Translations under genes and position numbers: made by a program | In this document: in pieces, positions 46,428-62,633 of the stretch | Layout: each line of letters opens with the position of its first letter | How positions within the stretch are numbered: the first letter of the stretch is position 1 | The notes under the pieces: generated by a model | The model's input: only the letters and a program-made list of their open reading frames with translations | Database searches by the model: none | Told to the model about the DNA's origin: nothing | Source of the DNA: Mycobacteriales bacterium | GTDB lineage: Bacteria > Actinomycetota > Actinomycetes > JAFAQI01 | Direction of reading: 5' to 3' | NCBI GenBank assembly: GCA_035550055.1 | Contig: DASZRO010000092.1 | Coordinates: 2,637-66,636, forward strand | DNA length: 64,000 bases

Positions 46428-46501
46428 CGCGGGGTGGAGCAGCTCGGTAGCTCGCTGGGCTCATAACCCAGAGGTCACAGGTTCAAATCCTGTCCCCGCT
46501 A
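46428..46501 (+). tRNA. tRNA-Met (CAT), initiator-like (three G:C pairs in anticodon stem, C1xU72 unpaired); no encoded CCA
   Basis: The cloverleaf folds by hand: acceptor cgcgggg/ccccgct, D-arm gagc..gctc, anticodon stem ctggg/cccag with loop ctCATaa, T-arm acagg ttcaaat cctgt. Confidence 0.85.
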
Positions 46502-46519
46502 CTAGTAAAACCCCAGGTC

Positions 46520-46555
46520 AGGGGCCTGATCACCCATTCGGGTGATCAGGCCCCT
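46520..46555 (+). terminator. perfect 16-bp hairpin (aggggcctgatcaccc attcg ggtgatcaggcccct) 19 nt after tRNA-Met
   Basis: Read from the sequence. tRNA terminator and/or part of an attachment site. Confidence 0.5.
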
Positions 46556-46792
46556 TGATCATTCGTCCGTGGCTCGTCCGTGAACCTGGGGGGACGCAGG
46601 GACACGTCCGGTGACTCGTGCGGCACCGTGAAGGCGCCACAAACGCCTGAGCCGATCGACGATCATCGCCTTGATGCACTTCAAGATCGATCCGGGCCGA
46701 CCCCGCAAAGCTCCCGCTGCGCGTGCCCATTTAGGCCCGAGGATGCCTCTGCTAACCGGGAATGTGTCGGGGGCTCGCAGTAAGTTCCGACC

Positions 46793-47437
46793 ATGTCGAT
46801 TGGTCAGGCCGGCGCGCTGGAGAGCAAGTGCGAGGCGGGGTTGGTAGCCGAGACGATTGCCACATACGACCTCGGCGCCGATGTCTATGGACGACGGTTC
46901 GCGCAAGTCGACATGGGGGTGTATCTCGATCGCTTCGCCGAACTGATTCCGCTAGGCAGCATCACGCTAGATGCGGGCTGTGGTTCTGGTCGGGATCTTG
47001 CCTGGCTGAGAGCTCAGGGTATCCGTGCAGTTGGTCTCGATCGGTCCACGGGAATGCTCAGACTTGCTCGCCGCTCCGTGCAAGGCGGCTTGCTGGTTCG
47101 CGGTGACCTCCGCCGTCTTCCCTTCTCGGCGGCGACGTTCGGCGGTGTCTGGCAATGCGCTTCGCTGGTTCATCTGTCGCGGCCGCAGACGGTGATGGCT
47201 CTCGCTGAAGTCGAGCGCGTGCTGACGCCTGGTGGAGTCGTCTTCCTTTCGGTCGCGACGGGCGGCGAACCGGAATGGCGCGCTTCGTACGCCGGTCGAC
47301 GATGGTTCCATTACTACGACGGTGGCGATCTGAATGCGATGTTGCAAAGCGTCGGCTTGACAGTCCTAACGAGCGCGACGGAGCCGGGCGTGGTTCGCGG
47401 TTCGTGGGTAAACGTCTTCGCGCGGAAGGCCCGATAG
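46793..47437 (+). CDS. class I SAM-dependent methyltransferase
   Basis: Motif I LDAGCGSGRDLAWL, post-I GLDRS, and a Methyltransf_11/25-like layout. Confidence 0.65.
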   Translation: MSIGQAGALESKCEAGLVAETIATYDLGADVYGRRFAQVDMGVYLDRFAELIPLGSITLDAGCGSGRDLAWLRAQGIRAVGLDRSTGMLRLARRSVQGGLLVRGDLRRLPFSAATFGGVWQCASLVHLSRPQTVMALAEVERVLTPGGVVFLSVATGGEPEWRASYAGRRWFHYYDGGDLNAMLQSVGLTVLTSATEPGVVRGSWVNVFARKAR

Positions 47438-48019
47438 TTGATTTCGCTCGTCGCTGCCGATGCTGCCACGAAAGTCTGGGGTATCGATGTCACATTGCTC
47501 GCAGCAGGAGTGGCCGCTGTAGCTGCCATCGCAGCAGCGGGGCTCTCTTACCGCGGGAATCTCGCCACGAACCGAGCTGCTGAGGCTCAGCGGCAGCGTG
47601 ACTATCGGGTTCGCCAGCTCAACGAGCTGTACGGCCCGCTGTACATGAGGCGCCGACTCAGCCGACAACTCTGGAAACAGCTCCCCGGCGTGCCTGATGC
47701 TGAGCCCGGAGTCACCCAGTGGCACCTGATTGATCATGTCGAGGAGATCAAGACCGAGCAAGACGCTCACCGCAGGCAGGTTGTCGAAGAGATTCTTAAA
47801 ATCAATGACGAGCTAACTGGCCTAATCACGGGAAGTGCCGGCCTGCTGGTGGAGTTTCCTGCTCCGCAGAGTTTCGAGACCTTCCTTGTGCATGCGGCGA
47901 CCCTTCGGATGTTCTGGGAGCAGGGCCGGAACGCAACTAAGGCCGCCTACATCCCGTTTCCGGGATCCATCGATCGCGACATTGAGGATGCGATCACTCG
48001 TCTGCGCTCTCAGCTATGA
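47438..48019 (+). CDS. hypothetical membrane-anchored protein (island cargo)
   Basis: N-terminal TM (LLAAGVAAVAAIAAAGL). Locally lower GC. Start abuts the methyltransferase stop. Confidence 0.4.
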   Translation: MISLVAADAATKVWGIDVTLLAAGVAAVAAIAAAGLSYRGNLATNRAAEAQRQRDYRVRQLNELYGPLYMRRRLSRQLWKQLPGVPDAEPGVTQWHLIDHVEEIKTEQDAHRRQVVEEILKINDELTGLITGSAGLLVEFPAPQSFETFLVHAATLRMFWEQGRNATKAAYIPFPGSIDRDIEDAITRLRSQL

Positions 48020-48360
48020 ACTCGACGGATAGTGATGTGACGGACGAGAGCCCGGATGCCGATCTCGACCATGAGTTTCACGTGGAGTCGGAGGCGGCGA
48101 TCGCCGAGTGCCGGTCCTTGGGATACACACCGACCGTCTGGATTTCAATGCTGAGCCAGGTTGGCGCTGCGGAAGCCGCGCGCCGGCTTCTCGTGAGTGG
48201 TGACATTCAGAGTGGGTTTTCACGGCTGGTCGCGCTTGGCAGGCCGGAGCTGACGGTCGAGTGGGCTGCGCTCAACCCTAGGTGGGAGCCTCTATTCGAC
48301 GATCAGCACCGGGAAGCGGCGCGCTGGCGCTTGCGTCAGGCGGGAGTAGAACCGCGCTAA
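48016..48360 (+). CDS. hypothetical acidic protein (island cargo)
   Basis: ATGA overlap with the previous gene. No recognised motif. Confidence 0.4.
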   Translation: MNSTDSDVTDESPDADLDHEFHVESEAAIAECRSLGYTPTVWISMLSQVGAAEAARRLLVSGDIQSGFSRLVALGRPELTVEWAALNPRWEPLFDDQHREAARWRLRQAGVEPR

Positions 48361-48366
48361 CGCGAA

Positions 48367-48510
48367 TTACGACGGCGTGGACCACGCAGGCCTCGCGGAC
48401 ACGATCAGCATGCGGTCCGCCAGGGCCCGCGCATCGACCAACACCTGCCGTCGCTCCTGCGGATCCTCGACGACGTTGATCACGTAACCGAGGTTGACGA
48501 CATGAGCGCG
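48367..48510 (-). pseudogene. possible C-terminal remnant of a methyltransferase-like gene (…HVVNLGYVINVVEDPQERRQVLVDARALADRMLIVSARP)
   Basis: Only the last ~45 codons of the 48367..48789 ORF look protein-like. The upstream part is Arg-rich GC noise. Confidence 0.2.
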
Positions 48511-48851
48511 CCGCCGGGGTTCATGTGGCGCATGGGCGGGATCCCAGCCATCGGCGGCGACACCTAAGGCGCGCAATGCTCGGACATACCCCCCCCCCGC
48601 CCGCACCCGTAGTCGAAGACGTGCTGGTCGCGCGAGATGAGCCCATCCCCGAGCGCCAGGGCGATTGGCCGGCACAGACTGCTCCTGGCGATAGCGGTCC
48701 GATGTCTCGGACGCCCGCCGCCGACCCCGGATGGGCTTTACCATCCCGAAGAGCGCCCTTTTCGGGCCCGTCGTCGAGTACGTCCGCATTGTTCACACCT
48801 GGAGGCCCGTCAAGTGTGCCGGCTCCGTCCGACCCGTATGTAGCTGCCGTC

Positions 48852-51050
48852 ATGCCGACCGTCCGCGCCGCCTTCCCGTTCCTCGTTGAGCTGCCTACCG
48901 TCGAAGAATCGCTCGGGCTGGATCTCCGCGGCGATCTCGATGCTCTCAGGCGTCGCGACGACTGGCAGCAGACCGCGGACGCCATCGCGAAGGCGATGGT
49001 CCGGTTCGAAGATCGTCCTGTGGGCGACCTGCTGCCCGGGCTGCGGGACTGGAACGTCCAGATCCCAAGCCACCTGCTACGCACCCGGACGCAGAACCTC
49101 CTTCGCCGCCACGACGTCACGACGTGGGCGGACCTGGCCGGCCTGTCCGTCTACGACCTCGGCCAATTCCGGGGAGCGGGCGCGCAGACAGTCCTCGACC
49201 TTGCCTGCCTCGCAGTAGCCGCGGTCGGGAATCAGAAGGGCTCTGGCGCCCCAGTGGTCGAGGAGCCGTTGACGTTGGAGCAGGACGAGGCGCTACCGCC
49301 CCAGCGAGAGCCGCTCGACCCCGCAGTCGCCCGGATCACAGACGGCCTGCGGACCCTCGCGGCGTGGGCACTACGTGAGCGGCAGCTCGACGAGTTCAAG
49401 GGCCTGGTGCAGCCGGCCGCCGGACTGCAGTTGCCTGAGCCCGTCGCCGCTTTGTGGCATGCAGTCGCCGGCCAACGACTCGAAGACGTCGCCGACCCCG
49501 ATCTCGTGAACGCAGACGTCGCCGAGTTGAGCGCGGCGCTGCTGGACCGGTTCGCGGGCGCCCAGCGGGTCATCCTGGAGCAGCGGCTCCTGAGCTCGAC
49601 GCCGGCGACTCTCGATCAGGTGGGCCAGCAGGTCGGCCTTACCCGCGAGCGAGTACGTCAGCTGCAGACGAAGCTGATCGAGCACCTGACACGCTCGCTG
49701 ACCGAGCGGCAGTTCCTCCCCCTTACCTGGCGCAGCGCCGACCTCGCCGATACGTTGCGCAGCTTCGCTCCAGCGGATGCACCCGAGACCGTTCAGGCGA
49801 TCGACCGTGCGTGCCGCAGCCAGACGGATGAAGGTGCGAGCGAGCTGAAGGCGCTGCTGTTGTACCTGGCCGGTCCGTTCAACCTTCGCGACGGCTGGCA
49901 CATCCGCCGCGGCTCGGAGTTCCCCGACGGTCGAGCCCTGGAGTCAGCGGCGGACGCAAGCCGCACGCTGTCGTTCGAGACGATCGACGAGTGGCTGGAC
50001 GCCAATGGAATCAACACCCTCTTCCGGAGCGTTTGGCTGCAGCACACCGGCCGCTTCCGTGTCATGGGCGACCGCGTCGCCGTTTGGTCGGGTTCGGTCG
50101 TGGACAAGTGCGTGACGTTGCTGGCGATGCGAGGCAGCCCGTGCACGGTAGAGTCGCTTCTCGACGACGTTGGTGAAGGGCACAGCCCGCGAGGCGTCCG
50201 GAACCGGTTCTTCGAAGATCCGCGGCTGATGCGCGTCAACAAGAACGACTGGGCGCTGCGCGCGTGGGACCTCGAGGAATACACGGGCATCGCGGAAGAG
50301 ATTGCCCAGCGCATCGTCGAGTGGGGTGGCAGCGCTCGCATCAGCGACCTCGTCGACGAGCTCGTGCGCCTGTTCGGCGTGAGCGCAGCCTCCGTCCGCG
50401 TCTACGTCGAGGCGCCGATGTTTGTAGTGGAGGGCGGGGTCGTCCGCCTGCGGCGTGAGGACGAGGCCTTCCAGCTCGCTTCCGGACTGTCTCGGGCCCG
50501 CGGTTGTTTCCGCCTCGACGCCAGCCGCATCTCGTACTTGGTGACCGTCGACAAAGATGTTGTCCGCGGCAGCGGCAGGCAGTGCCCGGAGCAGTTTGCC
50601 GCGGCCTTGGGCGTGCGGCCGGGCCAGCCACAGTCGTTCTCGGCCGCGGACGGCACGGTGGCCGTGACTTGGCCCGCGACCTCAGGGTTGGGGCCTTCGC
50701 TCGGGTCGGTCAGGGGACTCGCTGATGATGTCGGCGCTGCGGAAGGCGACTTCCTTCGGCTCGAATTCGATGTCGTCGAGAAGAACGTCGTCGGGCACCT
50801 CGTGACAAGGGCGCTTTTGGACGCCGCCTCTAGTGATGAGGCCGTGCGAATGATGTCGGGACTTGATCTCGGAGCCGATCAGTTGGCGGCCGTGGCGAGG
50901 GCGATCGACGTCGCTGCCGCGGATGTTTTCCGTGTCCTACGTCAACGTGGCGACGACCGGCTCGCCGACCTGCTGCCGCGTCCGGTCGCCGACGAGGCGC
51001 TCCAGCAGGCTCTTGCGGAGCTCGCCGGAACCTTGGACGAGCTCGACTGA
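48852..51050 (+). CDS. large hypothetical DNA-binding protein combining an RNAP alpha-CTD-like HhH and a sigma-70 region-4-like HTH
   Basis: IPSHLLRTRTQNLLRRHDVTTWADLAGLSVYDLGQFRGAGAQTVLDL (alpha-CTD-like) and TLDQVGQQVGLTRERVRQLQTKLIEHL (sigma region-4-like). The start is uncertain (ORF opens at 48525; first plausible ATG at 48852). A C10 tract lies in the upstream part of the ORF. Confidence 0.5.
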   Translation: MPTVRAAFPFLVELPTVEESLGLDLRGDLDALRRRDDWQQTADAIAKAMVRFEDRPVGDLLPGLRDWNVQIPSHLLRTRTQNLLRRHDVTTWADLAGLSVYDLGQFRGAGAQTVLDLACLAVAAVGNQKGSGAPVVEEPLTLEQDEALPPQREPLDPAVARITDGLRTLAAWALRERQLDEFKGLVQPAAGLQLPEPVAALWHAVAGQRLEDVADPDLVNADVAELSAALLDRFAGAQRVILEQRLLSSTPATLDQVGQQVGLTRERVRQLQTKLIEHLTRSLTERQFLPLTWRSADLADTLRSFAPADAPETVQAIDRACRSQTDEGASELKALLLYLAGPFNLRDGWHIRRGSEFPDGRALESAADASRTLSFETIDEWLDANGINTLFRSVWLQHTGRFRVMGDRVAVWSGSVVDKCVTLLAMRGSPCTVESLLDDVGEGHSPRGVRNRFFEDPRLMRVNKNDWALRAWDLEEYTGIAEEIAQRIVEWGGSARISDLVDELVRLFGVSAASVRVYVEAPMFVVEGGVVRLRREDEAFQLASGLSRARGCFRLDASRISYLVTVDKDVVRGSGRQCPEQFAAALGVRPGQPQSFSAADGTVAVTWPATSGLGPSLGSVRGLADDVGAAEGDFLRLEFDVVEKNVVGHLVTRALLDAASSDEAVRMMSGLDLGADQLAAVARAIDVAAADVFRVLRQRGDDRLADLLPRPVADEALQQALAELAGTLDELD

Positions 51051-51051
51051 C

Positions 51052-51474
51052 TTAGGCGAACTCAGAGAGCCGGTTGGTCAAGGTAAGAGTCGGCTCCGCC
51101 TCGCCAAGCAGCTTCTCGATGAGCCAAGCGAACCCGGCGTTGGCGTACTCGGTGGCGATGCGGATCACCTGGGCGGGGCTGTCGAGGACGCCCTTGCCTT
51201 CGACGGCGAGGGCCAGCAATTCGAGATGCGTGATGCGCCACGGGTCGGTCGCCAGGATTGTGCCGTCGTTGAACTTCACGGTCTTGTCTGGCAGGGGTGT
51301 GCGTTGGCGGAGTCGAACGCCGATGCCGAGCGCCACCCACCAGGCATCAACCTGACGGGCGAACGGCCGGGCGTCCTGCGCGGAACGTGAGACGAGGTCA
51401 TCCATGCGATCTCTGACGTCGCTCGCGATGAACAGGTCCTGGTTGGCATAGGGGTTCGCGACGGCGGCGGGCAT
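51052..51474 (-). CDS. hypothetical protein, last gene of phosphorothioation/defence operon (141 aa)
   Basis: Start overlaps the upstream ATPase stop by 1 nt (TGATG). No motif recognised. A DndE-like role is speculative. Confidence 0.45.
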   Translation of the reverse strand: MPAAVANPYANQDLFIASDVRDRMDDLVSRSAQDARPFARQVDAWWVALGIGVRLRQRTPLPDKTVKFNDGTILATDPWRITHLELLALAVEGKGVLDSPAQVIRIATEYANAGFAWLIEKLLGEAEPTLTLTNRLSEFA

Positions 51475-53618
51475 CAGACTGCAGCCTCCACGTCCCGGAA
51501 GTCGATTCCGTGCCGGTCGTCGTACTGACGGGCGCAGATTCGGCACGACTGGTGATGGTCACATGAGCAGGCGCGGACGACCGGATGGTCGATACCCCAG
51601 GGGTTGACGAGGTCGGTCGGGTAGTCCTTCGAACACGAGATGCTGACGATCTCGCCGGCACTGTTGTCAAGGAGCTCTTCGACGTCGCGAATCTCGGAGC
51701 GCGTGAGCAACAGCACCACCTGGAAGTCGGGGAGATCGGCGCCTGACGGCCTGGTGATGCGGTCGACCATCCGCGTTTTCACGCCGCCGGTGATCATCCC
51801 GAGTGGGGTGTCGATGATGCGTGGTGCTGTCGTGCCGGAGACCTCCATCAGCGCCCAGATGAACGAGACGGTCAGGGCACGCTGTGACGCACCGTTCAAC
51901 TCGAAGTCCGTATCCAGCGTCCGGCCGTCGTGCGTGTCGACGATGATGTTGTAGTTCTCATCGATGTGGACGCCTTCGAACACGCCGGCCTCGAACCCGG
52001 GGTGTGATCCGACAATGTCCATGAACAGTTCGTTCATGCGGTCGGACACACGACGAACGTAGTCGCCCTCGAGCATCTCTAGCGTGCCTGCGGCGAGCGC
52101 GGCAAGGTCTTGAGAGACGTCGCGTTTGACAACCAAATCGCCGCTCGCGCGCACCGCTTTCTCCGCTTCGCGCAGTTGTTGGTCCTGCACCTGTCGGCGG
52201 TCATCGAGTTGCTGAATTCTCGCCTGGATCCCGCCGAACTCGGTCCTGGCGTCGCCGATCTTTCGCTCGACGCCGGCGATCTTTCCGGTGAGGTCGCGGA
52301 CGCGGTCCTCGTCGATCTGCCTGCGCCGCTCCTTGAGTTGCTCGAGTTCCGTTGCCTTGGCTGCGAGCGAGTCCTTGGCGTCGGTGAACTCACTGAGCAA
52401 CTTCAGGCGTTGATCTCCGTACGCGTCGTTCTGCTCTTGTCGGGCGTCCTCGGCGGCGCGCGCCTGCCGAGCTGTGTGGAAGAGGCCTGTGAGTCGTTGC
52501 CTGCTGTCTGACTCGGCTCGTTGCTCGTCTCTGAGCTGCTCGACGCGATGACGGTGCCCGGAGCCTGGCTCCAGCGCTTCACCGCAGATGCATTCCTTCA
52601 ACTCGAGCCGGTCGGTGAGTACCTCGATAGAGGTTCCAGGAATGACGCGTCGGTCCACGAGGTCGGAGAGCAGCTTCATTCCCTCGTCGAGCTGGTCACT
52701 CATCAGTGTCCAGGAGATCGCCTCCGAACGCAGCGCCTCCCGCATGCGACCGAGCGCGCGGGCGCGCGCCTTCTCCAGAAGCTCGCGATCGCGCTCGGCC
52801 GTTTCGATGCGCGTGTTCAATTCATCGAGATCACCGAAACCGCGCAGCCCGTTGAGTTCCTTTTCCCAGTTGTTCTTCTGCTCGGTCATGTTGGCGAGTT
52901 GCTCTGTGACCTCGTCCGAACGAGCCCTCTCGTCGGCGAGTTCTGCCTCGGTTTCTTCGAGGGCAGTTTCGAGCTTGGACGTGTCCGAGCCGCCTGACCT
53001 TGAGACCTCAGCGCGGAGCTTCTTGAAGACGAATTCCAGGTCTTCCTTGGCTGTGCGTAGCGTGTCCAAGCTCAGCAACATCCTGATTGACCGATGGACT
53101 CGGTCTTGCCGCTGCTGGCTGGACACGCTCCCCGAGATGAAGGTCTGAACGTCGTCGCCGTTGGTGAAGAAGATGTCCTTCAACCGCAGCGGGATGAACT
53201 TTCCGATCAGCGCGTCGGCGCCCTCGATCTCGTCTTCGCCGGCAGACGTGATCTTGAACAGCCGAACGCGGTCACGCCCCCGGTCGACCTTGTCGCCGGC
53301 TTGCGGCGTCTCCGTCACGCTGCGAACAACCCGATAGCGCGTCGTGATGTCGTTGTCATCGGTGTGTTCGAACTCCACCATGACCGAGATCTCGACCGGC
53401 GTGCCGGCAGGTAGCGCCGTGGATGTCAAGCGACGGGCGGAGTCGGGGAGCCCTGGCATCCCGTAGAACGCCCAAAGCAGCGCGTACAAGATCGAGGTCT
53501 TGCCCGAGCCGTTCTCCGCCCGAATCACTGTTAGTGGCTTCTTCGGGTCGGTGGAGAAGTTGATCTTCACGTTCTCCAGCAGCTTGAAGTTCTCGATATG
53601 AGTGCGGATGAGGCGCAC
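51474..53618 (-). CDS. SMC/ABC-type ATPase (DndD/AAA_23-like N-terminus) with coiled coil and C-terminal Cys/His cluster
   Basis: MRLIRTHIENFKLLENVKINF...VIRAENGSGKTSILYALLWAFYG (Walker A). Long coiled-coil middle. Walker B/D-loop RIIDTPLGMI. C-terminal CSCDHHQSCRIC. GTG start overlaps the upstream ORF stop (TAGTG). Confidence 0.7.
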   Translation of the reverse strand: MRLIRTHIENFKLLENVKINFSTDPKKPLTVIRAENGSGKTSILYALLWAFYGMPGLPDSARRLTSTALPAGTPVEISVMVEFEHTDDNDITTRYRVVRSVTETPQAGDKVDRGRDRVRLFKITSAGEDEIEGADALIGKFIPLRLKDIFFTNGDDVQTFISGSVSSQQRQDRVHRSIRMLLSLDTLRTAKEDLEFVFKKLRAEVSRSGGSDTSKLETALEETEAELADERARSDEVTEQLANMTEQKNNWEKELNGLRGFGDLDELNTRIETAERDRELLEKARARALGRMREALRSEAISWTLMSDQLDEGMKLLSDLVDRRVIPGTSIEVLTDRLELKECICGEALEPGSGHRHRVEQLRDEQRAESDSRQRLTGLFHTARQARAAEDARQEQNDAYGDQRLKLLSEFTDAKDSLAAKATELEQLKERRRQIDEDRVRDLTGKIAGVERKIGDARTEFGGIQARIQQLDDRRQVQDQQLREAEKAVRASGDLVVKRDVSQDLAALAAGTLEMLEGDYVRRVSDRMNELFMDIVGSHPGFEAGVFEGVHIDENYNIIVDTHDGRTLDTDFELNGASQRALTVSFIWALMEVSGTTAPRIIDTPLGMITGGVKTRMVDRITRPSGADLPDFQVVLLLTRSEIRDVEELLDNSAGEIVSISCSKDYPTDLVNPWGIDHPVVRACSCDHHQSCRICARQYDDRHGIDFRDVEAAV

Positions 53619-53833
53619 TACGCCTCCCCGCCCTGCGCGGAGACCTTGCTGCCCAACGCCTCGACCAGCTTGGTGATCTTGTCCCGCCGCCCTTTCTCGG
53701 ACAGACCTTCCTGCTGCACGTTGATGGTGGCTACTAGCGCCTTCACGAGCTCGGCGCGGTATCCCGGGGTGCGTTCACTTATTAGCAGGACCTTCTCGCC
53801 GGCGACTTCTGCAATCCGGTTACCCGCCATCAC
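53618..53833 (-). CDS. small hypothetical protein (71 aa), translationally coupled
   Basis: Its stop overlaps the ATPase start by 1 nt. It sits 15 nt after the helicase stop. Confidence 0.4.
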   Translation of the reverse strand: MMAGNRIAEVAGEKVLLISERTPGYRAELVKALVATINVQQEGLSEKGRRDKITKLVEALGSKVSAQGGEA

Positions 53834-53847
53834 GTCTCCCCGTTAGG

Positions 53848-56007
53848 TCAGTCGTACTTCGACAGTATCTGGCGCGGTCCGTCGTTCGACCACTCGTTGA
53901 CGGCGAGGCTCGCGAACTCCTCAGCGCGACGCAGCTCGCCGCGCAGGATCGCCTTGCCGTGGTCCGAGCCTGGGTCCGGCGGGATGACGAGAAAGTCATG
54001 CAGGGTGGCGACTTCCTTGCCGGGCGCCTTGCGCAGGATGCGGCCCCTGCGCTGCACCCACTCTCGGTACACCGTGCTCGACGCTAGGAGATATGCCGTG
54101 TCGGTCTGCGGGATGTCGATGCCTTCGTCGAGGACCTTCATCGCAGTCAGCACCTGGTAGTCGCCCTGCCCGAAGCGGTCGAGCAGCTTCTTCGCATCCG
54201 CGCGCGAGGTCTCTGCGTTGGTGAACTGGTGGGAGATGATTCCGAGGCGCGATAGCAGCTCGTTGACTTCCTCAATCTGGCGAGTGCTGCCGAGGATCGT
54301 CGGCTTCGCCGAGGTGTAGATCAGCGTGCGCTGGACATTGCTCGCACCGTGCTCCTGCAACAGCAGTTCTAGCTGGTCGATCTTTCCGGATGCTTGCTCG
54401 AGCACCGCCCGTCGTTCGCGGAGCAGCCTCTCGATCTTCGGATTGGACACAACCGTGCGGCCGTCGTCTTCGAGGCGGAAGCCGGCGGCCTTCAATTCCT
54501 CGCACAGCTCGGTGTACTTGTTCATCTCGTCGTCGGCCAGCCGGACCTCGTGCAAGAAGTACCGGTAGCGGGTGAGGCAACCGGCCGCGATCGCGTCGGC
54601 GAGGCTGAAGTCGAAGACTGGCTGGCCGAAAAAGTCGAACAGCTTGTCGGTCCCGTCGGGGTCGTATTGGCGGACTGGCGTCGCGGACAGTCCAAGCCGG
54701 GTGTCGAATCGTTCCGGGAGATTGTTCAGGAACGTGGGTGTGCCGAGGTTGTGCATCTCGTCGCCGACGAGCATGGTCGCCGTATCTGCTGCTAGTTCGT
54801 CGATGAGCGCTCGCAGCGACTCGTCTTGTGCGAACAGTTGGTTAGTTGCAATGAGTACCTCGGTGCGTCGCTCGCCGCCGGCCAGGCCGGCGCGAACCTC
54901 TTCAAAGCGAACCCGGCGGCTATCTGGAGACCACTTGCTCGGCAGCAGGGGCTCTATCCCGAACTCTCGGAGATCGTCGGCCCACTGGGTCATGAGCGGT
55001 GTGGAGGGGACCAGGATCAGCAGCAGCATGGGGCCTTGATGACGCTCCTGCGTCTCCGTCGCGCAGATAAGTGCGGTTCGGGTCTTGCCTCCGCCGGTCG
55101 CGATCTCGAGGACCCCGCGGCCGTTCGCCTCGAAGTAGGCGTCGACGGCCCTGCCTTGGTGTCGGAACGGACCGGTCCGCCATTCCATCCCCGCCGGAAT
55201 TTGGAGCACGTGGGCGGGAGCGGAGCGGTAGTTCGGCGGCAGGTCCGGCTCTAGGCCGGCTTCGTGATCAGCCCGCCAGGCATCCCAGAAGTCCCGGACA
55301 GTGGGGACCTGCATCTCGTTGCCGTGACGCCCGGCGAATCGCAGGCCCTGCGGTGCCAGCAGCGTGAGCGAGTTGGGGTTTTCGTTGTTCCATTGGCGGT
55401 CCCATTGGCTCACCAGCAGCTCAACGCGCTTCGTCACGGACTGACCGTCCATCCAGGGGCGGTCGACGGTCATCTGCTCGCCGTTGACCAGTAGGCCGCG
55501 CGTTGTGGCGTTGCCGGAACCATGAACCGCGCCCCATGCGTTGCCGTCGTAGAACAGCCACATCTTCTTGTGGTACATCCCGCGTTGCATGAGCACGAAC
55601 CGCAGCTCGAGTCGGTCGCTCGCGACGAGGTAGGACAGGCAGTCGAGGGTGTGCCGTACGAGCGCGGACGGCGAGAGCTGTGCATCGGCGAGCAGACGCG
55701 TCGCTGTCTGCTCGATGACCCCCACCGGGTTGGACACGCCTCGGTCGATCGCGTCTCTGTCCTCGGCACTGATCTCAGGGCTCACGAGTAGTTCGAGCGG
55801 CTTAGAGCTGCTCGCAATGAACGAGGCAAGACCCGGCGCGATCTGCGCCAAGCAGTGCGAGCTGAAGAAGCCCGCGCCTATGCGGACGGAGGTGCTGACG
55901 TTCATGGCCGGCACCAGAACCTCGCCGACGAGATCATCGTCAGGGATTTCATAGACAGGAAGCGCGTCCGCGAGTGCTTCCGAAAGTCCGCCTGCTGCTT
56001 CGCTCAC
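53848..56007 (-). CDS. PLD-family nuclease domain fused to SF2 (DEAH/ResIII-type) helicase
   Basis: N-terminal HKKMWLFYD...GSGNAT (HxK..D..GSxN PLD motif). Helicase motifs I ATGGGKT, II VGDEMH, III SAT, and the C-terminal helicase domain (TAMKVLDEGIDIP, QRRGRILR). The GTG at 56007 overlaps the sspD-like stop (GTGA). An alternative start lies at 56025. Confidence 0.75.
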   Translation of the reverse strand: MSEAAGGLSEALADALPVYEIPDDDLVGEVLVPAMNVSTSVRIGAGFFSSHCLAQIAPGLASFIASSSKPLELLVSPEISAEDRDAIDRGVSNPVGVIEQTATRLLADAQLSPSALVRHTLDCLSYLVASDRLELRFVLMQRGMYHKKMWLFYDGNAWGAVHGSGNATTRGLLVNGEQMTVDRPWMDGQSVTKRVELLVSQWDRQWNNENPNSLTLLAPQGLRFAGRHGNEMQVPTVRDFWDAWRADHEAGLEPDLPPNYRSAPAHVLQIPAGMEWRTGPFRHQGRAVDAYFEANGRGVLEIATGGGKTRTALICATETQERHQGPMLLLILVPSTPLMTQWADDLREFGIEPLLPSKWSPDSRRVRFEEVRAGLAGGERRTEVLIATNQLFAQDESLRALIDELAADTATMLVGDEMHNLGTPTFLNNLPERFDTRLGLSATPVRQYDPDGTDKLFDFFGQPVFDFSLADAIAAGCLTRYRYFLHEVRLADDEMNKYTELCEELKAAGFRLEDDGRTVVSNPKIERLLRERRAVLEQASGKIDQLELLLQEHGASNVQRTLIYTSAKPTILGSTRQIEEVNELLSRLGIISHQFTNAETSRADAKKLLDRFGQGDYQVLTAMKVLDEGIDIPQTDTAYLLASSTVYREWVQRRGRILRKAPGKEVATLHDFLVIPPDPGSDHGKAILRGELRRAEEFASLAVNEWSNDGPRQILSKYD

Positions 56008-56840
56008 AGCGCGCAAACGGTGCACGCCGGCGTGTCGTCGTCGCTATCCAAAGCAGACGACAAGACCTCAATCAGTGGAATGTTGCGACGGGACTGGCTC
56101 GCACGCTCCATCGCGGCACGGTGTCGTTCGAGAATCTCGTCGCGGCGTGCGAGAAGTTCGCTCAGTGTCTCACCGCCTGACCAGGTGTAGGCCCGACTGC
56201 GCATGGCGCGATCACCGAAGTCGGCGTCGCCGTCGACGCCCGCGTCTTTGAGCATCTTCTGCTCGATGGCGACTGCTCGCTCCCACAGCTCCGGGTGACG
56301 GTCATGCAGCCCGACCCATTCGGCCTTTCGCTGGTAGAAGCAGAAGTAGCACCCGGATCGGGTTCGCCATTCGTAATACAACGGCAGCCCGATACCGGCG
56401 TCGGACAGGATGCGCATCACGCCGTCGTGGTCGATGTCGTCGTCGAGGAACGGAAAGACCGCGGTGATGTTGGGTTTGGTGGAGACATAGCCTTTGCGGT
56501 TGCGTTCATCGCTGCGGATCGCGATGTAGGACGTCGCGGGGGCGTCGCCGATCCACTCTTCCAAGGGTTTGATTTTCATCTGGCGGGTGCACCACCGCAT
56601 TTGCGGCGATGGCAGCGTCCCGCGGTACACCTCGAACCAGTGATCGAACCCGCGTTGAGCGTTGATGCGTTCGATCGGCTTGCCGAGCGCGACTTCGAGG
56701 CGGTTCAGGAACTCGTAAGTCTCCGGCAGTTCGGCGCCGGTATCGCAGAAGAAGTATTCCAGGTCGGGCACTCGGTCGCGCAGGTAGATCGCGAGTGCGC
56801 TGGAATCCTTCCCCCCGGAGATTCCACAGACGTGTCTCAC
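56004..56840 (-). CDS. PAPS-reductase-like PP-loop ATP pyrophosphatase (SspD/DndC-like)
   Basis: PP-loop CGISGGKDSSALA. Conserved Cys (CDTG, WCTRQMKIKP). ATGA overlap with the upstream ATPase gene. Confidence 0.75.
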   Translation of the reverse strand: MRHVCGISGGKDSSALAIYLRDRVPDLEYFFCDTGAELPETYEFLNRLEVALGKPIERINAQRGFDHWFEVYRGTLPSPQMRWCTRQMKIKPLEEWIGDAPATSYIAIRSDERNRKGYVSTKPNITAVFPFLDDDIDHDGVMRILSDAGIGLPLYYEWRTRSGCYFCFYQRKAEWVGLHDRHPELWERAVAIEQKMLKDAGVDGDADFGDRAMRSRAYTWSGGETLSELLARRDEILERHRAAMERASQSRRNIPLIEVLSSALDSDDDTPACTVCAL

Positions 56841-59800
56841 TTGCGCACCCTTCGTGCGTTCACGTTCTTCTTGGTGGCGTCGGTAGCTGGCGTGGCAGCG
56901 CTCCCTGCAGTGTGCGTTTGCCGGCTGGCGAGCAGTGCGAGCACGGTGTCTTCAGCCAGGCCGTCGGAGCCGAGGCGGGTCGCGACACGGGCGATCAACG
57001 CGTCGACTTCCGTGGCGATGGCGATCCGCTGATGCTCATCGACCCACACAACGCGGGCGCTCTCCGCTCCGTCGGGCAGCGTCACCGTGACGCGCATGGC
57101 TTCGAAGCCGTCCTGCTGGCTGGCGAGATGATCGTGGTTGAGAGCTTCGAGGCGGCGGAACGTGCCGCCGATCTCTCGCAGGGCACTGAAGAACCCGACG
57201 CGGTCGTCGTCGGTCCACGTCTGCGGCGGCAGTTCCGAGACGGTCATCGCGACGTACTCGGTCCAGTTGTTGTCGTCGTCGCCGGTTTCGGATGTGATCG
57301 CCGACAGGAAGGCCCGCATCCGCGGCTGGATGACCTTGCCGACGAGCAAGGCTCCTCGCTCGGCGAGGTTCGCCCGCAGACGCTCGCGTGGCACTCCGCA
57401 CACGTCGCTGATGCGGCCGCGGATTTCGTCGAGGAGTGCGGGATACGAGTTCTGGATTTCGGTGACCGCCGCCACGATCTGATCGGTCAGCGCTGTTAAT
57501 TGCCGCGGGGTGTAGGACGCGCCGGGATCTAGGGGCGGCAGATCGAACGCGGCGGGGAGAGCGCGGAACAGCAGCTCGTCAGGCTCGGTCGCGGCTTCGA
57601 GCGCCTGCCGGAATCGCAGCGTCGCGTCGCTCAAGTGTCGGGTCTTGCGGATGTGCTCGGGAGCGACTGCGACGACCTGCATCAGTTGCGCCACGACGGC
57701 GAGGACGCCGCCGCTGCGGAAGCCGGTGCCGGTGAGCGTTGCGGGCAACCGCGCGGGGAGCTTTTCAATGAGGGCTTGTCGTCCGCCGGAGCGGCTCGCG
57801 AAGTGCTTGATCTGGAAGTGCGCGGGATTGCGGACGAGTCGTTCGAGAACCTCGGGAGTAACAGCGGGCCGGAACGTGCCGTGTTCGTAGAGGGCGACCT
57901 GTTCACCGTGGACGAGCAACGCCGCGGTGAACAGGACCGGCGCGAGTCCGGCGCGCAAGCCGTACGGGGGAGCGGCGAGCCGGTCGAACAGCTCATCGAG
58001 CGCCACTCGTCCCGTCGTCGCCTGGTTGAACGTGCGCACGATCGCGTCCCACACTGGCTTGTACCCGGAGCGCGACGTGGGCTGCGCGAACCGCCACGAG
58101 TCGCCGTCCTGACGGTGCATGCCCGTGTCGTTGAGAATCGCCTCGTACATCGCGCGCTCGGGGCCGAAGCCCTCGATGCCGAGCCGCGGCGCCTCGGCGT
58201 CGCTGAGCATCGCCTCCAGCAGCTCCCGGCGCGCCTTGGCGGCCTGCGAGGACAGCTCATGACGGTTGATCAAGTCGTTGCGGACCCGTGGCGCCTTGGA
58301 GTAGACGTCGTCCGCTACCCACGACAGCGCGGCCGAGCCCGCTGGGGCGTCGATCACCGTTGACTGCCCGTTATCGCCGAGCAGGGACCAGCGATTGCCC
58401 TTCGCAGCGGGTCCGAAGACGGATTCGAAGGCGGCGTCGAGGGTCGTGACCGCTTCGGCGAGCCGCTCCTCGAGTTCCCGCTGAGCGACCCAGTCGATGC
58501 CAGCGACGGGATCGTTGCTGCTGAGCACGTCGCCGAGCGCAGCCGCCTCGATCGCGGCCTCCGTGACCGCGCCGACGTTGCGTGCGGTGACGATGACGAC
58601 AGGCTTGGCGCTTGCGCGGCTTTCGATGACGTCGCGCGGGAGCGGGCTGAGGGCATAGAGAACGCTTCCGTCGCAGCGGTCGGCCGACGTCGCGGGGGTG
58701 ACACGGCTTTGCCCGTCGACCCAGTGCCGGGTGAAGGTGCGCAGCGTCCCCGTCTCGTGACTGTGACGGCCGGCGACGAGCGGAGGCAGCGGACGAATGC
58801 GTTCGAGCAGCGTGGCGACGGACTCGCCGCGCAGCCGGCGCCGCGCCTGGTCGATGGCGTTCTTGAGGTCGAAGTCGCTGCCTTGCCAGACCCGGTACTC
58901 ATCGGCAAAGTCGCGGAAGGTGATCAGACCGAGCGCTTCGAGCTCTTTCAGGCGACGTTCCACCGCCTTGGCGTCTTGCGTTCCCGGCGCGCCGTCCGCA
59001 GCGGACCACGCGACGATCTGTTTCGACGCGCGCAGCGCGCCGCCCGACGCGACGAGGTTGAGCAGACCGACTGTGCGCACGACACGACGCTGCGCGGCGT
59101 CGAGCCCGTGGGCATCCCGGATTCGGGTGTCGACCTCCAGCCAGCGGCTCGCTGCGCTCGACACGGAGGCGAGGGTCGAAGCGGACTCGAGGAAGTAGCC
59201 GTAGAGGCGGTCGAGTCGCACGCACGGCAGCTCATCGTCGCCCGCGGGAAGGGCCGTGTCCTTCAACCAGGAGTGAATGCCTTTCGGCTCGCTGCCGGCC
59301 AGGAACGAAAACAGCGTGCGTTCGTTCTGTCCGTAGCGTTGGCACAGTTCAGGGAGCACGAGCAGCGCGAGAGGATGTAGGGGCCAAGTGCGTGCGAGAA
59401 CCGCGTCGTCCGCAAGGTCACCGAGCCCGGCAAGCCTCGCGCGTGCCGCCTGATCGGCGGCCCAGCGAGCCGTTCGCTGCGTGAACGCGCGGTTGGAAGA
59501 GTCGTTGAACGCCGCAGCGATCAGGGTCCGTGTTTGCGCCGGACTGTCAACGAACGGAACGTCTTCGAAGCGTCCCTGGATCTTCGCCCATTCGCGGCGA
59601 TGCGCAGCGGTCGCTCCTAGCGCGTAGTCGTCGAATGCCATGTGCTGCATCGTCACGAGGACGAGCGGAAGCGCCCGCTCGCCCCGAGTCCATTCCGCGA
59701 GGTCCTGCAGTAGGAACAGATCGGCGTCGCTGCGCGAGTCGGCGAATGCTTCGAGGTTCTTGCCGAACTCGTCGATGACAATCAGCACCGGCGCTGCCTC

Positions 59801-60382
59801 GGTCATCGTCTGCAAGCACGCCTTGATCTCACGCGCCTCGATGTGACGGGGCGTGCCTGCCGTCGCTTGCCGCTGGAGTTGGTCGAGGCGTCGACCCAAG
59901 CCGGCGAACTCCGCGCGCTGCGTTCGCGCCGGGAACCGTTCGATGCCGGAGCGCAAGGCTCGCACAACCGTCAGAGCGACCGGCTCGCGTTGTGCGGTGA
60001 CGAGGCAGCGGATGAAGCCGTCCCGGTCCGCATTCATGTCGCGGCGCGCGGCCACGAGCAGGCGGGCCGTGTCCGGGTCGGCGTTGAAGAGCAGGTCGTC
60101 AGCGGCAACGCGTGCGCGATCGCCGGTAGGTCCGAGCAACGCGTCGATGAGGATGGCGAGGCTGGACTTGCCAGAACCGTAGGGCCCGGTCACGGAAAGC
60201 GCGCGTTCGACGTCGTTGCGGCTCAAGCTGACGGCGAGCCGGTGGACGGTGTCGATGGCACGCGCGACCGGGAGATAGCTTTCGATCGACTCGCTGCCCG
60301 CGTCACGCTCGACGTTGATCGACCGTGCGAACCGTGGCTTCGGCGCGCGGAAGTCCAGCATCGAATGCTTGGCGGGGGTCAT
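56837..60382 (-). CDS. large P-loop ATPase, BrxC/PglY-like (DUF499-type), SspC-like
   Basis: 1181 aa. Walker A VTGPYGSGKSSLA near the N-terminus and Walker B LIVIDEFGKN. The size and layout match BREX BrxC-type proteins as I recall them. ATGA overlap with the DUF4007 gene stop (start at 60382, inside the 60589 ORF). Confidence 0.65.
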   Translation of the reverse strand: MTPAKHSMLDFRAPKPRFARSINVERDAGSESIESYLPVARAIDTVHRLAVSLSRNDVERALSVTGPYGSGKSSLAILIDALLGPTGDRARVAADDLLFNADPDTARLLVAARRDMNADRDGFIRCLVTAQREPVALTVVRALRSGIERFPARTQRAEFAGLGRRLDQLQRQATAGTPRHIEAREIKACLQTMTEAAPVLIVIDEFGKNLEAFADSRSDADLFLLQDLAEWTRGERALPLVLVTMQHMAFDDYALGATAAHRREWAKIQGRFEDVPFVDSPAQTRTLIAAAFNDSSNRAFTQRTARWAADQAARARLAGLGDLADDAVLARTWPLHPLALLVLPELCQRYGQNERTLFSFLAGSEPKGIHSWLKDTALPAGDDELPCVRLDRLYGYFLESASTLASVSSAASRWLEVDTRIRDAHGLDAAQRRVVRTVGLLNLVASGGALRASKQIVAWSAADGAPGTQDAKAVERRLKELEALGLITFRDFADEYRVWQGSDFDLKNAIDQARRRLRGESVATLLERIRPLPPLVAGRHSHETGTLRTFTRHWVDGQSRVTPATSADRCDGSVLYALSPLPRDVIESRASAKPVVIVTARNVGAVTEAAIEAAALGDVLSSNDPVAGIDWVAQRELEERLAEAVTTLDAAFESVFGPAAKGNRWSLLGDNGQSTVIDAPAGSAALSWVADDVYSKAPRVRNDLINRHELSSQAAKARRELLEAMLSDAEAPRLGIEGFGPERAMYEAILNDTGMHRQDGDSWRFAQPTSRSGYKPVWDAIVRTFNQATTGRVALDELFDRLAAPPYGLRAGLAPVLFTAALLVHGEQVALYEHGTFRPAVTPEVLERLVRNPAHFQIKHFASRSGGRQALIEKLPARLPATLTGTGFRSGGVLAVVAQLMQVVAVAPEHIRKTRHLSDATLRFRQALEAATEPDELLFRALPAAFDLPPLDPGASYTPRQLTALTDQIVAAVTEIQNSYPALLDEIRGRISDVCGVPRERLRANLAERGALLVGKVIQPRMRAFLSAITSETGDDDNNWTEYVAMTVSELPPQTWTDDDRVGFFSALREIGGTFRRLEALNHDHLASQQDGFEAMRVTVTLPDGAESARVVWVDEHQRIAIATEVDALIARVATRLGSDGLAEDTVLALLASRQTHTAGSAATPATDATKKNVNARRVRK

Positions 60383-61419
60383 CCTGCCACCTTCGCCTTG
60401 CCGCGGCTCGAACTCGCCGTGACGATGCTCGCGGGTTCGTCGCCGGCGGTTCCCGCGATTGGCGTCTCCGCCGGTTGCGCGTCCGGGTTTACGTGGAGGT
60501 AGTGCGCGTGCAGAACCTTGGTCGCGATCGCGGCCGGATCGCCGTCGAACGTCAGCTGGGTGACGCCAGTCGTCGTGATGAGCCGGCACCGGGGGCCGCT
60601 GAGGGGCAGCGCCTGTTCGATGTGTTCAATCAGGGACTGTTCGCTGATTCGGAATGCACGGCCCGGTCCGCCAGGCTCGGTCGCCAGTCGCGACATCGTC
60701 ACGGTCCGCGCGGTCGTGTCGGTTCGGGCGACGAAATCCAACGCGGCGAAGAGCACGACCGCGGACGGCAGGCCGGGTTTGCGCGACGAGACGAATCGGT
60801 AGCGGCGCCTGCCCGTGCCGGGGCGCAGCAGGCCGAGTTCGCGGAACGGGCAATCAACCAGGTCATCGGAGGTTGGCCGGCCACCTTCGGCTTCGGCCGT
60901 ATACATCCGGAGCAGGCAGTCGATGTCCTTCTTCAACGAGCCGGAGTGCACGTCGTCCCAGTCGCTGACGCCATCGACGAATTCGGAGACGAACGCTCGC
61001 AGATCGTCGTCGCCGAAGTCCAGCGCAGGAAATTCGTGGAACGTCACCCACCATGCGGGCGCGAGTGACGGCGGCGCCAACAGCCACCAGTGGAGCAGCC
61101 ACAGCGTGGCCCGGTCCTCGCAATACGGATCCCAGCCGTCGCCACCGAACAGCGTGACGCCGATGCGCGAGGGCACAGTTTTGGGCATGCGCAGGCGTTC
61201 TGGATCGGCTTCCTGGGTCAGCAGCTTGGTCGCGAGACCCCAGAACCTGATCGAGCGCACCATGTTCTTGCCAACACCGAGTTGGACAACGGCGTCGTCT
61301 CGCGTGAACATGCGCGGGTCGGCGGTCGCGCCGTCCACGGCCTTCTTCATCCACCCATACCTAGGGTGAAATGATTCGTGCCGCGCGAAAGCGGGAGTCG
61401 CGCTTGCCTCGAGTCTCAT
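60379..61419 (-). CDS. DUF4007 family protein (SspB-like)
   Basis: N-terminal FARHESFHPRYGWMKKA, the signature I associate with DUF4007/SspB. Its start overlaps the cysteine desulfurase stop by 4 nt. The true start is an internal Met of the 61575 ORF. Confidence 0.65.
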   Translation of the reverse strand: MRLEASATPAFARHESFHPRYGWMKKAVDGATADPRMFTRDDAVVQLGVGKNMVRSIRFWGLATKLLTQEADPERLRMPKTVPSRIGVTLFGGDGWDPYCEDRATLWLLHWWLLAPPSLAPAWWVTFHEFPALDFGDDDLRAFVSEFVDGVSDWDDVHSGSLKKDIDCLLRMYTAEAEGGRPTSDDLVDCPFRELGLLRPGTGRRRYRFVSSRKPGLPSAVVLFAALDFVARTDTTARTVTMSRLATEPGGPGRAFRISEQSLIEHIEQALPLSGPRCRLITTTGVTQLTFDGDPAAIATKVLHAHYLHVNPDAQPAETPIAGTAGDEPASIVTASSSRGKAKVAG

Positions 61420-62633
61420 GCCAACGCGCCGGCGGGCGTCGTCGCGGCCGTGGCATCGGTCGGGATGTCCGGGTGCGTGAGATCCCGGACCCGGTTCACC
61501 GCGGCCGCGAGGAGCGCCGCCGCCTCGGCGATCTCGGATCGCGTGGTCGGTCGGCCGACGCTGATGCGCACGCACTCGGATGCGGCTTCGTCGTCAGCGA
61601 GCATCGCGCGCAGGACATGCGACGGTCCGGGAACGCTCGAGGTGCACGCGCTGCCCGACGACAGCGCGAGCGTCGGCGCGTTAGCTATAACGGCGTCCGC
61701 GTCGGCTCCGGCGAATCGCCAGTTCCGGGTGTTGGCGAGTCGCGGTGGGCCGGCTGCTCCGGATGACGGCGAGACGATGTCGATCGGCGCGCATCCGGCG
61801 ATCACGAGTTTGTCGTGCAGATGGTCGATCAGCTCAGCGAAATGCTGGACGTCGGCCGCCAGCCGCGTCCTCGCGATGGCGGCAGCAGCGCCCATGCCCA
61901 CGATGGCGGGGACGTTGAGCGTGCCCGGTCGCAGTCCGCGCTCGTGGCCGCCTCCGTGCATCAGCGGCTCGATGCGGATGCCGCGGCGGATATACAGCGC
62001 GCCGACGCCCTTGGGGCCATACATCTTGTGACCGCTGAAGGACGCCATATCGACGTCGAGCGCGTCGAGGTCGATCGCGAGCCTGCCTGCCGCCTGCGTC
62101 GCGTCGGTGTGGGTGATCGCACCCGCCTGGTGGGCGAGTTCGTTGATGCGGGCGAGTGGCTGGATGACCCCGGATTCGTTGTTGGCGAGCATCACGGTCA
62201 CGAGACCAATGTCGTCCCCGAGTGTCGCCGCGAGTTGATCAAGGTCGAGCAGCCCGTCCGGGGCGACCGGAAGAAGCTCGATCTTGTAACCGTGATCTTG
62301 GGCCCAGGTCAGCGGTTCCAGCACCGCCTTGTGCTCCGTCAGGGGAGCAATGATCCGACGCCGATTGTCCGGCAATGCGGAGAGCGCGCCGAGAAGCGCA
62401 AGGTTGTTCGCCTCGGTGGCACCTGACGTGAAGACGATCTCGCCCGGGCGCGCACCGACGAGCTCAGCCAGCCGTGCGCGCGCGTCGTCGACCGCGGCGT
62501 GCGCCATTCGGCCCGGTAGATGATGACTCGCCGGGTTCGCGAACGCGCTGGTCAGCCACGGCTGCATGACGTCCAGCACAGCGCCGTCGATGGGCGTGCT
62601 GGCGTTGTAGTCGAGGTAGATCGCGTCACGCAC
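61416..62633 (-). CDS. cysteine desulfurase (class V aminotransferase; SspA/DndA/IscS-like)
   Basis: AIYLDYNASTP, TSGATEANNLAL, PLP-Lys motif SFSGHKMYGPKGVGALY, catalytic Cys loop SSGSACTS. GTG start near 62633. Confidence 0.8.
   Translation of the reverse strand: MRDAIYLDYNASTPIDGAVLDVMQPWLTSAFANPASHHLPGRMAHAAVDDARARLAELVGARPGEIVFTSGATEANNLALLGALSALPDNRRRIIAPLTEHKAVLEPLTWAQDHGYKIELLPVAPDGLLDLDQLAATLGDDIGLVTVMLANNESGVIQPLARINELAHQAGAITHTDATQAAGRLAIDLDALDVDMASFSGHKMYGPKGVGALYIRRGIRIEPLMHGGGHERGLRPGTLNVPAIVGMGAAAAIARTRLAADVQHFAELIDHLHDKLVIAGCAPIDIVSPSSGAAGPPRLANTRNWRFAGADADAVIANAPTLALSSGSACTSSVPGPSHVLRAMLADDEAASECVRISVGRPTTRSEIAEAAALLAAAVNRVRDLTHPDIPTDATAATTPAGALA

Follow-up and report, generated by a model that had tools for sequence, protein, structure and literature searches.

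The PbeABCD family was founded on the DndCDEA-PbeABCD system of Haloterrigena jeotgali A29 (Xiong et al. 2019, PMC6459918). The pbe cassette of this haloarchaeon encodes a protein with PLDc_2, ResIII, and Helicase_C domains, a protein of 66 amino acids (aa), an AAA_23 protein, and a protein of 152 aa (PMC6459918). It has been reported that haloarchaeal PbeABCD acts only when the host carries phosphorothioate (PT) modification and all four genes are present, that virus with PT marks escapes it, and that it stops replication of viral DNA with no degradation being visible (PMC6459918). The Aravind laboratory re-annotated the proteins as an HKD-superfamily 2 (SF2) helicase, a small protein, a CxC ATP-binding cassette (ABC) ATPase, and a DndE cognate, under the Krishnan/Aravind name CxC ABC-ATPase/DndE conflict system (PMC10853773). 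In this study, we analyzed four adjacent genes, pbeA to pbeD, of a Mycobacteriales bacterium (contig DASZRO010000092.1, positions 2,637 to 66,636). They lie directly downstream of sspABCD in this stretch of 64,000 nucleotides (nt), called the window below, and are likely to form the restriction (exclusion) half of a PT-based defence operon together with sspABCD.

SspABCD places single-strand PT marks on host DNA. SspE, which is found with it, is a single protein with a DUF262 NTPase and a DUF1524 nuclease. SspFGH is encoded by three genes, for a Walker A protein (SspF), SspG, and SspH with an FtsK/SpoIIIE-like C-terminus (Wang 2021, PMC8092258). In the present locus, the sizes, domains, and order of the four genes match both the H. 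jeotgali cassette and the Aravind-laboratory re-annotation. Judged by their protein sequences, the four genes are therefore members of the known PbeABCD family, and hence not new.

Results

A sequence-only reading made earlier had described four open reading frames (ORFs) at 51052-56007. All four were found at the same coordinates on the minus strand, the last product being 140 aa long. The eight genes of the locus are as follows.

pbeA, 53848..56007, minus strand, 719-aa HKD (phospholipase D (PLD)-family) nuclease domain fused to a DExH SF2 helicase
pbeB, 53618..53833, minus strand, small protein of 71 aa (70 aa if the start is the ATG at 53830)
pbeC, 51474..53618, minus strand, 714-aa ABC ATPase resembling DndD, CxC clade, carrying a coiled-coil insert
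pbeD, 51052..51474, minus strand, 140-aa predicted DndE-like tandem ribbon-helix-helix protein
sspD, 56004-56840, minus strand, PADLOC SspD (9e-108)
sspC, 56837-60382, minus strand, PADLOC SspC (E=0), about 1180 aa from the ATG at 60382
sspB, 60379-61419, minus strand, PADLOC SspB (1.5e-99)
sspA, 61416-about 62633 (ORF open to 62816), minus strand, PADLOC SspA (1.7e-130)

Pfam matches of the ssp products were Aminotran_5, DUF4007, and PAPS_reduct. In the NCBI records of the same metagenome-assembled genome (MAG), the 719-aa (P0001) and 140-aa (P0121) products are called at identical starts. The longest-ORF starts, giving 725 and 164 aa, were rejected because alignments of homologs and the gene overlaps favored 719 and 140 aa.

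In the direction of transcription, the order is sspA-sspB-sspC-sspD-pbeA-pbeB-pbeC-pbeD. Direct reading showed start-stop overlaps of ATGA, ATGA, and GTGA at sspA/sspB, sspB/sspC, and sspC/sspD. The GTG start of pbeA overlaps the sspD stop by 4 nt, also as GTGA, an overlap absent from the sequence-only reading. The junctions that it had described, TAGTG for pbeB/pbeC and TGATG for pbeC/pbeD, were seen again on direct reading, and pbeA and pbeB are separated by a 14-nt spacer that holds a GGGGAG Shine-Dalgarno sequence. With starts and stops overlapping at the ssp-ssp, sspD-pbeA, pbeB-pbeC, and pbeC-pbeD junctions, these results indicate that the eight genes form one tightly, translationally coupled operon. 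The A-B-C-D order of the pbe genes is also kept in related loci, which together with the overlaps suggests co-transcription. A sigma-70 promoter scan gave no site and terminator-like sites were fewer than in shuffled sequences, a result that says nothing on operon boundaries.

The guanine-cytosine (GC) content of the window is 0.63-0.74. In all four pbe genes, including the 71-aa ORF, GC at the three codon positions is about 0.67/0.43/0.81, so that pbeB too is supported by a coding-type value at the third position (GC3). An ORF of 64-82 aa was present between pbeA and pbeC in 79 of 79 related loci examined. These two observations argue that the pbe genes are real and are not chance ORFs of high-GC DNA.

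We then compared each protein with known families. PbeA matched the PADLOC PbeA profile from end to end (residues 25-712, E=5.2e-180) and NCBIfam TIGR04095, 'DNA phosphorothioation system restriction enzyme' (E=2e-108). It has the family architecture, an N-terminal HKD domain followed by an SF2 helicase, the latter occupying the C-terminal two thirds with Pfam ResIII (288-452), DEAD, and Helicase_C (555-666). In a PDB profile search, XPB/Rad25 (E=6.5e-29) and type I/ISP restriction helicases were the closest solved relatives of the helicase. The four helicase motifs given in the list below are all present. The PLD motif reads YHKKMWLF...VHGSGNAT. Of the HxK(x4)D..GSxN pattern that had been proposed for it, H146, K148, and GSxN (G163, S164, and N166) are invariant among 23 homologs, whereas the textbook Asp is not conserved and sits one residue further along. 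PLDc_2 was the top or only Pfam match of the N-terminal domain in 9 of 10 PbeA-family members (best E=7.8e-10) and exceeded the gathering score in two of the 10. The catalytic residues are intact in sequence, namely H146, K148, N166, and DEMH in PbeA and the Walker A Lys40 in PbeC. The motifs of the two large proteins lie at the following positions.

55510..55572, minus strand, single HKD catalytic motif of PbeA, residues 146-166 (HKK...GSGN), from 23-homolog conservation
53968..55161, minus strand, PbeA helicase core, about residues 283-680, motifs ATGGGKT, DEMH, SATP, and QRRGRILR
53493..53516, minus strand, Walker A (P-loop) stretch of PbeC, residues 35-42, ENGSGKTS, from the 72-homolog alignment
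52584..52592, minus strand, CxC of PbeC (C343-I-C345) in the middle of the coiled coil, predicted zinc hook, from homolog conservation
51534..51569, minus strand, C-terminal CxCx5Cx2C cluster of PbeC, CSCDHHQSCRIC, residues 684-695, 19 residues before the end

PbeC matched the PADLOC PbeC profile (E=1e-49) ahead of DndD (4.5e-37); of its 98 PADLOC matches, the best 25 were listed, and all were PbeC or DndD. Pfam assigned AAA_23, NCBIfam gave Rad50 and SbcC N-terminal matches, and the score against TIGR03185 (DndD) was 110 bits, under the cut-off of 246. A sequence search of the PDB gave no match. The ATPase motifs, Walker A GSGKTS (37-42), the NGASQR signature, and Walker B IIDTPLG, are conserved across 72 full-length homologs and the window protein. 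The sequence-only reading had called this protein DndD/SspC-class and SMC-like. The likeness to DndD was borne out, but SspC is unrelated and is encoded upstream in the same operon. It has been reported that SMC proteins have an apex hinge and a coiled coil of 800-1000 residues (PMC10853773). In PbeC the insert is about 330 residues with the CxC at its center and no hinge, and SMC_N scored 22 bits against a cut-off of 40; an SMC identity was rejected and the label is imprecise.

The CxC ABC-ATPase clade is defined by its CxC (PMC10853773). At the hook position of PbeC, all full-length homologs carry C.CG, those of Pseudanabaena and Halococcus among them. The conservation pattern thus predicts that the zinc hook is the CxC at 343-345 and not the C-terminal tail, which had been offered earlier as a zinc hook or finger. 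The tail is nevertheless a conserved Cys cluster and, from its spacing CxCx5Cx2C, a probable extra zinc-binding knuckle. All full-length homologs of the fetched loci have it, even where identity falls to 24%, as does the copy on a Sphingomonadaceae plasmid, and it was absent from three PbeC proteins outside the clade, those of Pseudanabaena, Halococcus, and the metagenomic locus L084 (L084, L085, and L087). It lies past the end of the PADLOC PbeC profile matches (about residue 650).

PbeD showed no significant sequence match in Pfam or the PDB, and a weak match to NCBIfam TIGR04062, 'dnd_assoc_4'. The structure prediction and fold comparison that the sequence-only reading had recommended were informative here. 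An AlphaFold2 model built with 35 homologs reached a predicted local distance difference test (pLDDT) score of 91.6, and the modeled PbeD has the DndE fold, which only fold comparison revealed. The DndE-like fourth protein of the PbeABCD family is thus predicted to be present.

PbeC and PbeD are most closely related to DndD and DndE, the pair by which PT insertion is directed. In the view of the Aravind laboratory, ABC-ATPase/DndE pairs are site-scanning modules that may trigger or report modification (PMC10853773). On these grounds PbeC-PbeD could be a second target-selection module, analogous to DndD-DndE, which writes an extra mark with SspA and SspD and has PbeA as its nuclease; the locus would then contain two routes of modification in place of a writer and a reader. 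We consider this extremely unlikely. SspBCD is already a complete writer, and Pbe modules also occur with methylases or without any sulfur-transfer genes. Moreover, PT modification is described as persisting with H. jeotgali plasmids from which single pbe genes were deleted, so that the pbe genes appear dispensable for PT yet needed for defence (PMC6459918).

PbeB had no profile match in PADLOC, Pfam, or NCBIfam. As no profile exists for it, its membership rests on position, size, and conservation within the clade; ERYPGY(R/H)xxLV is common to PbeB of close relatives. In this clade, PbeB is helical and conserved rather than disordered and fast-evolving. This bears on the abortive alternative proposed in PMC10853773, by which PbeB would restrain PbeA until a phage product freed the nuclease against the host chromosome and the cell died. 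A small partner protein is always present, and degradation of viral DNA was not seen in the archaeal system (PMC6459918), both of which agree with such a device. A conserved helical PbeB does not, and PT-modified virus escapes archaeal PbeABCD, which without PT is neither toxic nor protective (PMC6459918). The escape of PT-modified virus and the lack of toxicity without PT point to discrimination of self from non-self rather than suicide, and abortive infection appears very unlikely.

The operon holds no Dnd genes, its writer being SspABCD. Since published surveys describe the pairing with dndCDEA as not universal, this pairing is a feature of the founding example and not of the family. Several other identities were considered and rejected. 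SspFGH has three genes with other domains, and no FtsK-like or SspF, SspG, or SspH match was among the matches listed from PADLOC, Pfam, and NCBIfam. For SspE, neither DUF262 nor DUF1524 was found in the four proteins, and no SspE model was among the listed PADLOC matches, those of the other scanned window ORFs included. DndFGH (TIGR03236-03238) had no match among those listed from PADLOC and NCBIfam. DISARM was also considered and rejected. A type I/III restriction subunit was rejected as well, as only the helicase region matches, and weakly, the nuclease is of HKD type, and the operon has no methyltransferase.

Of 439 PbeA relatives in a genome scan, the 80 loci with the PbeA closest to that of the window (34-65% identity) were fetched and searched with the window proteins. 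At least 9 kb was available on both sides in 65 of the 80, which form the full-flank set. SspB, SspC, or SspD was found within 10 kb in 50 of the 65 loci (77%), and all three in 43; as the 80 loci are the nearest relatives and include many MAGs from few projects, the 77% describes this clade and not the whole family. At least eight relative arrangements of Ssp and Pbe genes were seen among the linked loci, which come from Actinomycetota, Chloroflexota, Acidobacteriota, Planctomycetota, Gemmatimonadota, Thermodesulfobacteriota, and Alpha- and Gammaproteobacteria. An identical eight-gene sspABCD-pbeABCD operon, annotated with generic names only, is carried by the complete plasmid CP099618 of Sphingomonadaceae bacterium OTU29MARTA1 (L086:3208-14306). 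This operon, from a cultured isolate, adjoins an integrase, encodes a PbeC with the Cys4 tail, and has no sigma-like gene of the kind described below.

Across loci, PbeA identity was correlated with PbeC identity (Spearman rho=0.89) and not with SspD identity (rho=0.10). These values indicate that the Pbe genes move as one unit and have been recombined with different Ssp modules. A weak DndCD-PbeAC correlation, parallel to the PbeA-SspD result, was reported earlier (PMC6459918).

The lack of correlation between PbeA and SspD also agrees with a reading in which PbeABCD is a self-contained ATP-dependent restriction or exclusion system that co-travels with SspABCD in a mobile defence island and ignores the PT mark. 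Family members without any PT genes exist (loci L085, L087, and L088), no dndCD lies near 58% of PbeAC pairs (PMC6459918), and the present region is a lower-GC island adjoining a tRNA-Met gene. Such independence is unlikely, however. Through the GTGA overlap, pbeA belongs to the ssp transcript and its translation is tied to that of sspD, adjacency persists through rearrangements and across phyla in 77% of the full-flank loci, far above expectation for an uncommon modification system, and the only relative tested needed PT for activity (PMC6459918).

Some loci lacking Ssp have other contents. In L066 (30-6173) and L024 (3240-5983; two genes), PADLOC gave the candidates PDC-M33A and PDC-M33B upstream of the sigma-like gene and pbeABCD, and in L066 genes for a DndA/SspA-like cysteine desulfurase and a PAPS-reductase-like protein are present as well. 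This arrangement may represent a third kind of sulfur-modification module paired with Pbe. The megaplasmid of Arthrobacter sp. StoSoilB13 (NZ_AP024649, L088:11884-17438) carries the sigma-like gene, pbeA, and pbeC in this order with no Ssp within 12 kb; its pbeA match is split in two near residue 120, which suggests a frameshift or a sequencing error.

A further gene converges on pbeD, the two stop codons being 1 nt apart.

48852..51050, plus strand, sigma-factor-like multi-domain DNA-binding protein of 732 aa, Pfam Sigma70_r4, NCBI start (P0241)

A homolog of this gene lies directly beside pbeABCD in 48 of the 65 full-flank loci, with or without Ssp. Over all 80 loci, it was just upstream of pbeA on the same strand in 37 and convergent after pbeD in 16, and the Arthrobacter megaplasmid shows the adjacency too. 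In its AlphaFold2 model (pLDDT 91.5), fold matches were obtained at the level of domains only, to sigma region 4, the C-terminal domain of RNA polymerase alpha, a winged helix-turn-helix like that of RNA polymerase delta, tandem winged helices as in SelB, and plant B3 DNA-binding barrels, with four winged helices in total. The B3 assignment of the beta-rich domain rests on several Foldseek matches (E 0.02-0.3), and fold comparison found no enzymatic domain.

A homolog search with the 841-aa ORF gave 10 matches owing to a low-complexity false N-terminus, and the exhaustive search used the 732-aa form. The family has 1911 cluster representatives and is not confined to Pbe loci. In the metagenomic locus L081 (1-8848), a relative with 32% identity is divergent from a C5 DNA methylase gene, which is followed by genes for an SNF2 helicase, an EcoRII-N domain protein, an HATPase_c_3 protein, an HNH protein, and Vsr. 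L081 is a methylation-based defence-like locus with a related DNA-binding partner. Shorter relatives occur on mycobacterial plasmids without obvious defence genes, and distant ones are fused to an RNase T-like exonuclease. The sigma-like protein is best described, from its sequence and gene neighborhood, as a frequent DNA-binding partner of this Pbe clade, and a role is only proposed.

The whole ssp-pbe locus lies in an island of lower GC and GC3 (46500-64000), whose left edge is a tRNA-Met gene (46428-46502) followed by a hairpin. GC3 is 0.80 in the ssp-pbe genes and 0.92 in the flanking core genes, which fits an acquired island beginning at the tRNA gene. Neither a second copy of the tRNA-Met 3' end (attR) nor an integrase was found inside the window, and the right edge is thus placed beyond it. 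Between the tRNA and the sigma-like gene, the island holds, at 46793-47437 and 47438-48360 on the plus strand, a gene for a class I S-adenosylmethionine-dependent methyltransferase with a weak PADLOC 'mad2' match and two ORFs of 193 and 114 aa without family match. Core genes to the left of the island (42006-43667 plus, 43675-46374 plus, 38951-41905 plus) encode a subtilase (Peptidase_S8, weak PADLOC subtilase/IetS matches), a PAS-GGDEF-EAL protein, and a UPF0182 membrane protein, and nothing suggests that they belong to the defence locus.

Discussion

The sequence-only reading had proposed that the four genes are a restriction or effector module working with the ssp genes. Our results support this proposal through the full-length matches of PbeA and PbeC, the predicted DndE fold of PbeD, the coupling of pbeA to sspD, and the linkage in 50 of 65 loci. 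It had also suggested a co-occurrence analysis bearing on a dedicated PT role. The co-occurrence with Ssp is evident in this clade, but the wider family is not dedicated to PT and the module is already known.

With PbeABCD as the restriction half of the operon, the following mechanism can be proposed. A PbeC dimer joined by the CxC zinc hook, together with PbeD as a DndE-like DNA binder, would form a complex, driven by ATP, for scanning or looping DNA and for reading its PT status. PbeA would be the effector, with its DExH motor translocating along DNA. Since each chain has one HKD motif, two PbeA molecules would have to come together to complete a single nuclease site, in the manner of Nuc and BfiI, and the pair would nick, cleave, or block DNA without the mark. 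PbeB, small and helical, may serve as an adaptor or as a brake. A second zinc is probably bound by the Cys4 tail of PbeC, which may mediate contact with protein or DNA, and the sigma-like protein may add DNA recognition or regulation.

Several points weigh against assigning PbeABCD to PT-based restriction in this way. The PT dependence proposed here is carried over by analogy from a Dnd-linked archaeal system with a different, double-stranded mark. Cleavage of DNA by PbeA is disputed, as no degradation was seen in one study (PMC6459918) and cleavage was argued in another (PMC10853773). In the present clade, 15 of the 65 full-flank loci lack Ssp, and more distant family members lie beside methylases or have no modification genes nearby. 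The 58% of PbeAC pairs without dndCD, and the many beside methylases (PMC6459918, PMC10853773), likewise show that the wider family is not PT-dedicated. The uncorrelated PbeA and SspD identities indicate that the two halves are exchanged freely, which fits recognition of a chemical mark and equally fits mere co-location. The roles of PbeB, the Cys4 tail, and the sigma-like protein are solely those that we infer.

In the literature searched, no description of an Ssp-Pbe pairing was found, and an earlier mention remains possible. Relative to the known PbeABCD, the new features are the pairing with Ssp, the Cys4 tail specific to this clade, and the neighboring sigma-like gene. It has been reported that about 84% of sspBCD clusters have neither SspE nor SspFGH (PMC8092258). 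Given the operon and the 50 of 65 linked loci, the sspBCD clusters without a partner and the pbeAC pairs without dndCD suggest that each gap partly explains the other. Current annotation would show the locus as two separate or partial systems rather than one. As a tentative proposal, with the odds against it, SspABCD-PbeABCD could be a distinct, widespread, and undescribed PT-defence subtype that covers some 'orphan' sspBCD and some 'solitary' pbeAC, with the Cys4 tail and the 732-aa protein as working parts. In such a subtype, the 732-aa protein may be a DNA-recognition or PT-discriminating subunit that serves the HKD nuclease in trans, a task that B3 performs in cis for BfiI, or it may connect the system to RNA polymerase. 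The mechanistic question is how one machine of ABC ATPase, DndE-like protein, and HKD-helicase uses both double-stranded Dnd and single-stranded Ssp marks. The pairing is directly testable, since cultured carriers include the Sphingomonadaceae plasmid and strains of Nonomuraea, Microtetraspora, Streptantibioticus, and Streptomyces.

Among known systems, Rad50, SbcC, and SMC proteins resemble PbeC in an ABC head split by an antiparallel coiled coil, with an apex cysteine hook as in Rad50. PbeC differs in its shorter coil, in CxC instead of CxxC, and in having no hinge and no Mre11/SbcD partner, and its scores to these families are far under their cut-offs. Type I, type III, and ISP enzymes, BfiI, and NgoAVII/CglI are alike in coupling an SF2 translocase to a nuclease. 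The PLD-family enzymes BfiI and NgoAVII/CglI also share one HKD motif per chain, so that dimerization is needed, and the DNA-binding domain of BfiI is a B3 domain, as the neighboring sigma-like protein likewise has a B3-like barrel. Unlike enzymes of type I or type III, PbeABCD has no PD-(D/E)xK nuclease, methyltransferase, or specificity subunit.

Compared with DndD-DndE of DndABCDE, PbeC differs by its CxC hook and by a score under the DndD cut-off. PbeC-PbeD is joined to a nuclease-helicase and not to DndC, and in the relative that was tested its part is in defence and not in writing. SspABCD-SspE and SspABCD-SspFGH have the same modification half joined to a PT-using restriction half, and these restriction halves do not resemble PbeABCD. 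H. jeotgali PbeABCD agrees with the present module in its four genes, their order, their domains, and roughly their sizes (about 70 aa for the small protein and 140-150 aa for the DndE-like one), as well as in the CxC hook of the AAA_23 ATPase, and it too lies beside PT-writing genes. Unlike in H. jeotgali, the writer here is SspABCD, with the ORC/Cdc6-type ATPase SspC, the DUF4007 protein SspB, and a single-strand PT mark, and not DndCDEA. The present system further differs from the founding one in the extra CxCx5Cx2C cluster of PbeC, the usually adjacent sigma-like protein, and its bacterial host, a high-GC actinobacterium.

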